DNA of 64,000 nt from Promethearchaeota archaeon (GTDB lineage Archaea > Asgardarchaeota > Lokiarchaeia > Sigyniarchaeales > SOKP01), in NCBI GenBank assembly GCA_016839705.1, contig JAEOTR010000084.1, forward strand, positions 22,132 through 86,131, read 5' to 3'. The notes beneath the pieces were generated by a model. The model was not told the DNA's origin, ran no database searches, and worked only from the letters and a program-made list of their open reading frames with translations. Numbering within the stretch: the stretch's first letter is position 1; every line of letters begins with the position of its first letter. The translations under genes and the position numbers were made by a program. Shown piece by piece: positions 26,366-37,772 of the stretch.

Positions 26366-26905
26366 ATTCCGTCTAGTGATCTAACGTATAAAGTCTGTAT
26401 TTTCGGTGATGGTGGTGTCGGGAAAACCACGTTAATTGGACGTTATTTAACCGGTGTATTTCAAAGTAATTCGGAAATTACTATAGGAGTCGACTTTCAT
26501 ATTAAGAGATTAGAGATTCAGGATAAACGAGTCACATTACAAATCTGGGATTTTGCTGGTGAGGACAGGTTTAGATTTTTATTACCCAGTTATGTACTTG
26601 GTGCTTCAGGTGGAATTTTCATGTATGATATAACTCGTTATAGTTCACTTAAGAATTTTCAAGATTGGTTATATATTTTTAAACAAGGCTATAAGGGGCC
26701 AATTGCTCAAATACCTATCATAATGGTCGGAAGTAAATTAGATCTGGAATATAAAAGAGCTGTTTCTAGGAAAGACGCATATGAACTGGCAAAACAAAAT
26801 GATTTATTTGGATATATTGAATGTTCCTCTAAAAATGGTCAAAATGTAGAAGAAGTTTTTGCTGAAATTGCTAGGTTGATGATGAAGAATACTAAAAATG
26901 ATTAA
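26366..26905 (+). CDS. Rab-like small GTPase (probable ATT start)
   Basis: The track lists only 26621..26905. The same frame upstream gives YKVCIFGDGGVGKTT, TIGVDF, IWDFAGEDRF; G4 SKLD and G5 ECSSK follow. In-frame TGA at 26354; no canonical start before G1. Confidence 0.88.
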   Translation: MPSSDLTYKVCIFGDGGVGKTTLIGRYLTGVFQSNSEITIGVDFHIKRLEIQDKRVTLQIWDFAGEDRFRFLLPSYVLGASGGIFMYDITRYSSLKNFQDWLYIFKQGYKGPIAQIPIIMVGSKLDLEYKRAVSRKDAYELAKQNDLFGYIECSSKNGQNVEEVFAEIARLMMKNTKND

Positions 26906-27808: not shown

Positions 27809-28963
27809 CTACCAGCCTACTGGCAATCCTAGTAATAATATAAAAAGCTGGATACCAATAGGGATGAAAATTGGGTTTAAAAGATTATCCGCTGTAAATT
27901 TGGGAAAGTAATCTGTTATAAAAAATATAACTGCCCCAATTATTGCGTATATTGGTCCTACAAGGATTAAGCCTATTAAATACGCTACAATCATGCCTGC
28001 AAGAAAACCTTCTATGGATTTTTTATCTTTACTCCTTACCTTGACTTTATGTTTTCCGTATTTTCTACCAATTAACGCAGCAGCAGCATCCGATAGACAG
28101 GCAATAAGAATCCCCGAAAATACCGCTTTTATATGAACTAAATTTACCATATAGAGCATGTATGAAAAAACAAAACCTGTAATTATATAAATTTGCGGTC
28201 CAGCAGCATTTCTTTCCTTTTTTCTTAACATGGATTTTGTTAAAAAGTTAAAGACTGAATACTCTGGTCCCCAAAAAATTCTGATTAAATCTGAGATTAT
28301 AGCAAATATTAACGCTCCAATCAGCGCCATCATTGTAAGGTAAACAACTGCGAAATAATTGGATATTGGGTCTCCAATCGTAAATGGAAATAAGGTTAAA
28401 TCCCCCCATATAAGGTTATACGCAGGTTCGATATTATGTATTAATTCAATCACTCCATCGCTTATTATCCGTGTAACAGGGTACATAAAAGGTAATCCAA
28501 AATAAGCTAACACTAGTAAAAGTCCTGTTAAATGAAAACTTTTTCTTATATACTCCATTCTCATAGTAATTTCTTCTCCGTATTGGTTCTCTTTTGTCAT
28601 TCTTTCAACGTATCTTCTTAACAGTGGTTTTTCCCCTTCTTCAATAATTACTCCATCGTCTTCTCTATTCATTTTCTTTTTTACTCTTTTGATCAAGAAA
28701 GAAAAAATAAAGTTTACGAGTAAAATAATACCGATCCACCATACCATAAATCCATTATAAGGATAAACAAAAAATCTTACAAGAGAATTATAATATCCAA
28801 AAATCAAGAAACAAATACCACTTAAAATAGAGGAAATCCCACCATACCGATTGCCTAATTTATATCCCCTTTTCCCTATAAAAAACATTAAAAGGGCTAA
28901 AATGAAAAATGTGAGAGATAAAGTAACATTGTAAGCTTCACCAATAGCAGTCCAGTAATCCAT
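27809..28963 (-). CDS. CTP-dependent polyprenol/diacylglycerol kinase family membrane protein
   Basis: RKSFH, DAAAALIGRKYG, KSIEG, DNLLNP. Confidence 0.85.
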   Translation of the reverse strand: MDYWTAIGEAYNVTLSLTFFILALLMFFIGKRGYKLGNRYGGISSILSGICFLIFGYYNSLVRFFVYPYNGFMVWWIGIILLVNFIFSFLIKRVKKKMNREDDGVIIEEGEKPLLRRYVERMTKENQYGEEITMRMEYIRKSFHLTGLLLVLAYFGLPFMYPVTRIISDGVIELIHNIEPAYNLIWGDLTLFPFTIGDPISNYFAVVYLTMMALIGALIFAIISDLIRIFWGPEYSVFNFLTKSMLRKKERNAAGPQIYIITGFVFSYMLYMVNLVHIKAVFSGILIACLSDAAAALIGRKYGKHKVKVRSKDKKSIEGFLAGMIVAYLIGLILVGPIYAIIGAVIFFITDYFPKFTADNLLNPIFIPIGIQLFILLLGLPVGW

Positions 28964-29309
28964 ATCTAATCACCAAAAGAATGGTATTAATTAATTTAAT
29001 AATTCACAATCTAATAATTATTCTTTGATTTCAGAATAAAATTAAAATAGAGGTAAAGAAAATCATTGATAACCATTTATTATCTAAATTTTGAAAAAAG
29101 GATTATCCTAAGTTCTTAAAAGGTATATCCTCTTCTAAATCATTACAATACAAAAATTTCAAAACTAAATTAATAAAGAACTAATAATATATTTTATTAG
29201 AGAATAAGTAATACAAAAAAATAAATAAAATTAAAATAAGTTAATTATAACTAGTATATTATAATTTTTTCTATCTCTAAATCGATTTTAATACTAAATA
29301 ACAGGTAAA

Positions 29310-36527: not shown

Positions 36528-36770
36528 TTATCTTCTTGTTCGAATTTTTCTTGCTTCCCGTTCTACTTCTCTTAAAATTACAACATCATTCATTTTAATA
36601 GGCCCCTTGACATTACGAGTTAAGATTCGATTTTTATCTGGTCCATCTAAGATCCGAACCTTAATTTGTGTTATTTCTCCTGTAAGACCAGTTCGACCAA
36701 TTATTTGAATAACCTGAGCTGGTGTAGACTGATCTTTAACTGAAACCTTAGATTTATCTAATTTTACTAT
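36528..36770 (-). CDS. rps28e: 30S ribosomal protein eS28 (probable ATA start)
   Basis: Not in track. [42 protein letters not shown]...EREARK; in-frame TGA just upstream. Confidence 0.93.
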
Positions 36771-36789
36771 GATTATTCACCAAGTTGTT

Positions 36790-37161
36790 CTATTTTTTTA
36801 TTTCTTCCAAATTCTTAATTACATCATTTAAAATACCATCATTTCCGGTTCCAACGTTTTCTATAGCTATAGCACTTGCTGATACATTAATTCTAGCAGT
36901 ATTACCAAGCTCTTTCTTTGTTGTTAAATAACCATAAGGAATACCTTTTTCTTCGCACAATAATGGTATGTGGAATAATATCTCTGGGGGACTAACATCT
37001 TCAGCCATGATAACGATTTTAGCTTGTACTCTTTCGATTGATTTAGTAACTTCATTCATCCCTTTTCGTAATTTAGAATCTCTAGTCTCTGCGATTTTAC
37101 TTAAGGCATTCTTAAGCTGATTTTTTAATTTATCCGGAATTTTAAATTTAATATATGAAAT
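36790..37161 (-). CDS. rpl7ae: 50S ribosomal protein eL8/L7Ae (probable ATT start)
   Basis: SYIKFKIPD...KLRKGMNEVTKSIER...AEDVSPPEI...LCEEKGIPY; the track's start at 37059 is internal. Confidence 0.93.
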   Translation of the reverse strand: MSYIKFKIPDKLKNQLKNALSKIAETRDSKLRKGMNEVTKSIERVQAKIVIMAEDVSPPEILFHIPLLCEEKGIPYGYLTTKKELGNTARINVSASAIAIENVGTGNDGILNDVIKNLEEIKK

Positions 37162-37571
37162 ATTTAATCATCTCCTTCAAATATACATTAATATATTTTC
37201 ATAAATCATCGATATTCGATACACTTTTTAATACAAGATTAAAGATAAAATTTGTCATTTGGGACAAAAAGCCTAAAAATTTTTCTTTATATACTCTTGA
37301 GGGATTAAGTGATAAACATTCCAAATAATTGTGAATTTATCATGAAAGTTAGTCTGAAAAAATTAAAAGGATTAAAAAAAATTAATAATTTATTTGCACT
37401 TATAATTTGGCTAGGGTTATTAACAGAAGCAATTATCTGTATGTGGATTTGAGAAATGGAAAAACTTATTTTTAATGAATTACTTGATAACATACATTTA
37501 GAATAATTCTAATTTTATTATCAAATCTATTAAATACATAAAGCAAATTAACCCAAAGGAGGAGATGTATC

Positions 37572-37772
37572 ATAATTATACCGATCCGCTGCTTTTCATG
37601 CGGAAAATTAATAGCTCATATTTACGAGCCTTATTTGGAGCTTTTGGAGAAAGGTGAATCATCCGAAAAAGCCTTTAAAGAATTAGGGATTGAAAGGTTC
37701 TGTTGTAAAAGAATGGTGGTTAGCCACGTGGATTTAATAGATGAGTTACTTAAATTTCCACGCTTGCAATAA
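37572..37772 (+). CDS. rpoN: RNA polymerase subunit Rpo10 (N) (probable ATA start)
   Basis: Not in track. (M)IIPIRCFSCGK...LGIERFCCKRMVVSHVDLID. Confidence 0.95.
   Translation: MIIPIRCFSCGKLIAHIYEPYLELLEKGESSEKAFKELGIERFCCKRMVVSHVDLIDELLKFPRLQ

Follow-up and report, generated by a model that had tools for sequence, protein, structure and literature searches.

The question raised by this locus is how three core genes are translated whose reading frames offer no usable ATG, GTG or TTG before the conserved N-terminus. The genes lie within 1.3 kb of a stretch of 64,000 nucleotides, referred to here as the window (contig JAEOTR010000084.1, positions 22,132 to 86,131), from an archaeon of the Lokiarchaeia, and each is present as one copy in the genome. 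Based on NCBIfam profiles, plus Pfam, they are rps28e (eS28; 36528-36770, minus strand, 80 aa, NF003080 above cut-off), with ATA at 36770-36768 as its apparent start, rpl7ae (eL8; 36790-37161, minus strand, 123 aa, PF01248 above cut-off and a full-length match to TIGR03677 with a score below cut-off), with ATT at 37161-37159, and rpoN (Rpo10; 37572-37772, plus strand, 66 aa, NF003089 above cut-off), with ATA at 37572-37574. The initial annotation had described all three as intact, and our analysis returned the same coordinates and motifs. Strong Shine–Dalgarno (SD) sites are found 5-7 nt before these starts, namely GGTGA at 36777-36781 (minus strand) for rps28e, GGAGATGA at 37168-37175 (minus strand) for rpl7ae and GGAGGAGA at 37558-37565 (plus strand) for rpoN, and the frame is closed just upstream or is without a canonical start. 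The in-frame stop three codons before the rps28e ATA is the TGA of its own GGTGA, the rpl7ae SD contains an in-frame TGA as well as an out-of-frame ATG, and another out-of-frame ATG is located at 37565, upstream of the rpoN ATA. The genome has a 16S 3' end with a standard anti-SD sequence (contig C76), to which the rpoN SD is complementary. A gene of the window with ATG at 28963 has, as had been claimed, the same geometry, GGTGA followed by 6 nt and the start codon (28961-28974, minus strand). Downstream, the first in-frame ATG, GTG or TTG is reached only after 21 (rpoN), 34 (L7Ae) and 59 (eS28) codons; initiation there would cost Rpo10 its N-terminal cysteine pair and L7Ae its first 34 residues, and eS28 would be reduced to 21 residues. 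It had been predicted that gene callers would truncate such genes, and the L7Ae entry of the public collection is indeed an 89-aa protein that begins at the internal ATG, while no match was found there to a 123-aa L7Ae with isoleucine as the first residue.

Contigs of two further samples showed 0 differences and 0 gaps across each of the three starts, which rules out an assembly error and leaves no indel that would restore an ATG; the check was made on contigs rather than reads, and rare variants and expression are outside its reach. A contig from an RNA library of another study is identical and colinear over the rps28e start, and may derive from DNA in that library. The genome is a metagenome bin with an estimated contamination of 6.8%, and for such material sequencing or assembly errors, or pseudogenes, come to mind as the source of near-cognate starts. 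However, with error-free agreement between samples, with genes that are essential and single-copy, and with dozens of relatives in the same state, the probability of this reading is negligible.

The orthologues of the three genes agree with initiation at the aligned codon. In rpl7ae this codon is ATT in 21 and ATA in 3 of the 24 genus genomes with a match, so that relatives are by no means uniformly ATG, as compared with ATG in 6/6 genomes of other families; 80 further loci have ATT (38), ATA (6) or ATG (36), and the non-ATG copies, which keep the SD GGAGATGA throughout, form one clade with a support of 0.997. The genomes compared are related, and conservation counts such as these overstate independence. 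Neither ATG nor ATC serves as the rpl7ae start in any of 48 distinct sequences, whereas in the same sequences G occurs at 17 of 19 fourfold sites and ATC in all 7 internal isoleucine columns. RNA structure could be an alternative constraint on this start. The rpl7ae SD lies between two conserved TGA motifs (37161-37190, minus strand), as the k-turn or k-loop of an L7Ae autoregulation would have; the leader folded into no consensus structure and Rfam gave no relevant match. Autoregulation of L7Ae through a k-turn in the l7ae 5' leader has been described (PMC5539422).

The ATA of rps28e aligns with orthologue starts that are nearly always preceded by GGTGA and 6 nt and that read TTG (45), TTA (12), ATG (10), GTG (8), CTG (2) or ATA (1). 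The TTA codon, which has two mismatches to AUG, stands in these 12 genomes at the Met-aligned position with GGTGA and the 6-nt spacer, and 3 of the 12 carry an ATG three codons later (loci L078, L083-L085, L087, L089, L090, L094, L098, L107, L108 and L110). The ATA of rpoN aligns with the ATG of orthologues that begin with M-I-I-P, which places it at the methionine position, as had been supposed. Two rpoN architectures are found in the loci of the family, one with ATG and no strong SD and one with a near-cognate codon behind a strong SD, the latter including other relatives with the SD of the window's gene. All 18 strong-SD copies are non-canonical (ATT, ATA, ATC, ACG, GTT, GTC or TTC), while none of the 45 ATG copies has a strong SD. 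A T-run at -28 to -31 is present in 36 of these 45, and we infer that the ATG-type mRNA is probably leaderless, with some reserve since the T-run forms only a modest peak at this distance genome-wide. The SD-led rpoN of the window would be transcribed as a leadered mRNA from an A-run/T-run promoter-like element at 37461-37478 (plus strand), about 105 nt before the gene, which is common to other SD-led rpoN genes. The rpoN gene tree partly sorts by architecture, so that there were fewer switches than the species tree suggests, and no second rpoN copy was found in this genome or the relatives searched. With TTA at rps28e and GTT, GTC and TTC at rpoN, some relatives may tolerate two mismatches to AUG.

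Two observations were made in passing around rpoN. An out-of-frame insertion of 31 nt with a stop codon is found after codon ~51 in 6 of 21 genus genomes (loci L287-L292 in G015, G024, G001, G017, G008 and G023; see also L038) and is absent from the rpoN of the window; together with its flanks it folds into a bulged hairpin, and it is a candidate for a bulge-helix-bulge intron within a protein-coding gene. In the window, a 47-codon ORF with a GTG start, a hydrophobic C-terminal half and no Pfam match (37309-37452, plus strand) sits behind a conserved divergent promoter, at the place occupied in many relatives by the rpoN ATG.

A further ribosomal protein gene, uS14, has ATT or ATA in 11/11 genus genomes behind an AGGTGA-type SD and 6 nt, as compared with a canonical start in ten outgroup genomes; in the uL22-uL15 cluster, 1 of 19 ribosomal protein genes is affected and the other 18 are mostly canonical. 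We regard AUH initiation (AUU, AUA or AUC) as general in the family.

At the level of the whole genome, ATH codons are enriched at a narrow distance from SD sites. The TGA of an SD serves as the upstream stop of 62 ORFs, of which 20 are without a canonical start among their first six codons; 18 of the 20 have ATH at 6 nt (two of the focal genes included), one has CTG at 6 nt and one ATT at 9 nt. This frequency of 18/20 at spacer 6 compares with 13% for the remaining ORFs (p 5e-14). A genus mate, of which 1.2 Mb was analysed, has 15 comparable ORFs, and the codon in question is ATH in 13 of them, CTG in one and ACG in one; in two outgroup genomes, 400 kb of each yielded only 4 informative ORFs per genome. 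When SD sites without a canonical start were counted in all frames, ATH was found at spacer 5 in 34/65, at 6 in 29/43 and at 7 in 15/42 cases, a total of 78 where about 20 would be expected; all other spacers between 1 and 15 gave background values, and canonical starts were distributed over 3-12 nt. Relative to 335 SD sites that precede canonical starts and to 2806 ORFs, the surplus of about 58 amounts to about 60 genes, or about 15% of those with a strong SD and about 2% of the whole set; SD sites are the unit of this count, which may include a gene twice and does not capture genes with a weak SD. TTA and GTH starts were not in excess over this genome as a whole. A pairwise comparison of about 600 gene pairs with one relative (G006) gave at least 13-15 hand-picked cases, with antisense frames contaminating the set. 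The 6-nt spacer shared by the three focal genes, to which the initial annotation had given weight, is present in all of them but is partly a matter of ascertainment, because at this spacing the TGA of the SD is in frame and closes it, as in rps28e and rpl7ae; the genome-wide range is 5-7 nt.

A fourth gene of the window, which encodes a Ras-family GTPase (26366-26905, plus strand), probably starts at an ATT at 26366 that follows GGTGA and 9 nt. Its first canonical start is 85 codons in, and PF00071 is covered from 1 to 161 when the protein is read from the ATT versus 78 to 161 from that codon. Another gene, for an MGMT-like DNA-binding protein (PF01035; 40802-41128, plus strand), has a possible GTT start 6 nt behind an SD; the aligned codon is ATC in the genus mate, and the alternative is a GTG 8 codons later.

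Taking these comparisons together, we consider it very probable that the focal genes and some 2% of the genes are translated from AUH codons. The proposal that the lineage routinely initiates in this manner is thus borne out by the orthologues and by the SD-spacing test, which gave a similar result for a second genome, with the provision that a minority of genes is concerned. Its further suggestion that such starts are tied to abundant proteins did not hold, as the list of AUH genes is functionally mixed and contains transporters, small GTPases and metabolic enzymes.

Substitutions in aIF1, aIF2 and the initiator tRNA had been named as a possible cause, and none that would serve as such was seen in the sequences inspected. 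The initiator tRNA gene (contig C76:9715-9842) is canonical, with A1-U72, a CAU anticodon and an anticodon stem that has three G-C pairs; together with many other tRNAs it contains a short intron and is missed by default scans, and a tRNA-Sec was called as well (contig C18:39386-39471). The genes for aIF1, aIF1A, aIF2 beta, aIF2 gamma, KsgA and uS9 are all present, aIF2 gamma and KsgA being recorded for presence alone, and a loss of any of these factors was rejected. aIF1 was found in 35 of 41 relatives and 80 of 81 genomes of the phylum, and its basic loop, R-K-W-G-R (residues as in PMC6237735), is that of ATG-starting Asgard families; a loss or lesion of aIF1, with a Sui-type relaxation, was therefore rejected. 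So was a reassignment of ATA to methionine, as internal isoleucine columns of L7Ae, aIF1 and uS14 mix ATT, ATC and ATA and never show ATG. Two aIF1A paralogues (contigs C97:32668-32874 and C38:3142-3348; L308 and L312), both with a few residues inserted ahead of the C-terminal W-R-Y motif, are seen in this genome and a genus mate. The only standout in the machinery, and a weak lead, is a Tyr-to-Phe change in the C-terminal tail of uS9 (contig C32:27182-27562; L317, L369-L392), which reads KSFR in 14/14 family genomes versus KSYR in 13/15 others.

The gene for aIF1 itself (contig C76:31961-32176, minus strand, outside the window; L124) starts with ATT behind an SD. An in-frame stop is located two codons before the ATT, and there is no canonical start until 48 codons past the first cysteine of the zinc knuckle. 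ATT is found at this position in 23/23 genus sequences, in which 0/23 fourfold sites and 0/6 internal isoleucine columns are invariant. Elsewhere in the family two more genera have ATT and a third has ATA, ATA recurs in some genomes of a sister family, and aIF1 is without a canonical start (ATA or CTG) in three Asgard families outside the order; many other Asgard aIF1 genes start with ATG, GTG or TTG. By the same comparisons, the starts of rps28e and rpoN vary freely among relatives and those of aIF1 and rpl7ae are constrained. The initial annotation had offered relaxed start-codon selection or a translational control; both fit these patterns, and what does not stand is their presentation as alternatives.

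As a whole, the best explanation in our opinion, and a likely one, is near-cognate initiation positioned by the SD and combined with feedback by aIF1. That the SD positions the initiator Met-tRNA on the AUH codon is the part in which we have considerable confidence. Pairing of the SD with the 16S 3' end would put the near-cognate codon in the P site, where the ordinary initiator tRNA would pair at codon positions 1-2 with its CAU anticodon and tolerate a mismatch at position 3, and the proteins of AUH genes would begin with methionine. A near-cognate codon would work at optimal spacing only, and AUG at 4-10 nt and also without an SD; SD strength and codon quality would thus be exchangeable, and a strong SD with a weak codon could replace AUG with a weak or no SD as settings of output. 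In addition, aIF1 would set the stringency of selection and, through its own AUU start, be subject to negative feedback as in infC, and the approximately 60 AUH genes would thereby be sensitive to the aIF1 level. Since Sulfolobus aIF1 excludes AUU from initiation complexes on model mRNAs (PMC4705826) and infC controls itself, such feedback seems the most economical reading of the invariant ATT, and we lean towards it. However, this ATT is placed 9 nt from its SD, outside the genome-wide window of 5-7 nt, and tight control by aIF1 fits poorly with the efficient use of AUU that is expected at stoichiometric ribosomal proteins. Given the many Asgard aIF1 genes with ATG, GTG or TTG, the feedback would in any case not be universal.

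It is also conceivable, though on balance unlikely, that AUH initiation is real but unregulated and reflects an intrinsically tolerant ribosome or initiator tRNA of the family, caused for example by a modification of C34 in the initiator tRNA or a change in the P site. Behind a good SD, AUH would then nearly match AUG, and its distribution would result from AT-biased mutation and shared ancestry. This would agree with the genome GC of 31%, with the mixed functions of the AUH genes and with the range of codons at the rps28e and rpoN starts (ATG, TTG, GTG, CTG, TTA, ATH, ACG and GTH), as well as with the KSFR tail of uS9, which in yeast contacts the anticodon stem of the initiator tRNA (PMC6344880). 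The tyrosine of this tail has been called partly variable, however (PMC6344880), aIF1 also has non-canonical starts in families or genomes whose uS9 ends in KSYR, and the strict 5-7 nt window indicates that AUH is weaker than AUG. Nor does tolerance account for the invariant ATT of aIF1 or the avoidance of ATG and ATC at the rpl7ae start; it could be the explanation for AUH genes other than aIF1.

Two readings that avoid near-cognate decoding by the initiator tRNA appear very improbable. The mRNA might be corrected, by editing to AUG or the removal of a short intron, or an isoleucine tRNA might be brought to the start by an alternative factor; short introns are common in the tRNAs of this genome, and relatives have the candidate intron in rpoN. 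However, the RNA-library contig agrees with the DNA at the rps28e start, with the reservation as to its origin made above, and the presence of ACG, CTG, GTH and TTG at the same codon in orthologues argues for a mismatch with the initiator tRNA rather than for an isoleucine tRNA or one type of editing. Slightly less probable still is initiation at an ATG or GTG in or beside the SD followed by a +1 frameshift into the coding frame, for which candidates are an out-of-frame ATG in rpl7ae (10 nt ahead of the ATT) and in rpoN (7 nt ahead of the ATA), and in rps28e a GTG that precedes the ATA by 10 nt. Any SD with an N-TG-A core yields such a codon, in ATG genes as well, and no spacer separates the codon from the SD; such an ATG is absent from most relatives with a non-ATG rpoN, the spacers share no common slippery sequence, and some have a stop in that frame at codon 3. 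A frameshift would also leave the enrichment of ATH at 5-7 nt only, and at Met-aligned positions, unexplained.

Initiation at AUA, AUU and AUC takes place in mitochondria, where the third position is tolerated on leaderless mRNAs and many systems read internal AUA as methionine; here, in contrast, an SD is needed and internal ATA stays isoleucine. In bacteria, infC, the gene for IF3, has an autoregulated and conserved AUU start, according to the account in PMC4705826, which cites Butler et al. 1987. As in infC, the gene of a fidelity factor starts at a conserved AUU behind an SD; however, aIF1 has the SUI1 fold and is unrelated to IF3, about 60 genes rather than a handful use AUU, AUA or AUC, and the feedback is our inference. 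The homologous eIF1 is autoregulated through a poor AUG context (PMC4705826, PMC6237735), and its start is likewise suboptimal, but eukaryotes keep AUG, scanning and the Kozak context, whereas the aIF1 codon is near-cognate and SD-positioned. We would suggest only tentatively that in Asgards of the Lokiarchaeia type some 60 AUH genes, among them those of ribosomal proteins and of an RNA polymerase subunit, are co-tuned by aIF1 in a loop that recurs in several Asgard families and prefigures the autoregulation of eIF1. The machinery is otherwise that of other archaea, with aIF1, aIF1A, aIF2, a canonical initiator tRNA and both SD-led and leaderless mRNAs. A review of archaeal initiation gives only AUG, GUG and UUG as start codons (PMC7531240), and near-cognate sites in Haloferax ribosome profiling were putative alternatives that the authors set aside (PMC7261190), unlike the present codons, which are the sole starts of essential genes. 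The tubulin gene atubA of Kariarchaeaceae has an ATT behind a ribosome-binding site, a truncated GenBank entry and a start described as rare (PMC13394414); this is one case from another Asgard class, with no lineage-wide count or mechanism. No report of lineage-wide AUH use or of an AUU-started aIF1 was found in the searchable literature, which leaves subscription papers outside.

The SD-led AUH starts are a variant of known near-cognate initiation, and their use throughout a lineage is new in the searchable literature. One consequence is practical, as annotation truncates or misses about 2% of the proteins in these genomes; L7Ae, eS28, Rpo10, uS14, aIF1 and the Ras-family GTPase would lose key N-terminal parts, which touches presence and absence calls, phylogenomic markers and constructs for Asgard biochemistry. 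Beyond this, a lineage near the origin of eukaryotes in which essential genes and a fidelity factor start at AUH codons provides a test of how start-codon stringency and feedback of the eIF1 type evolved.
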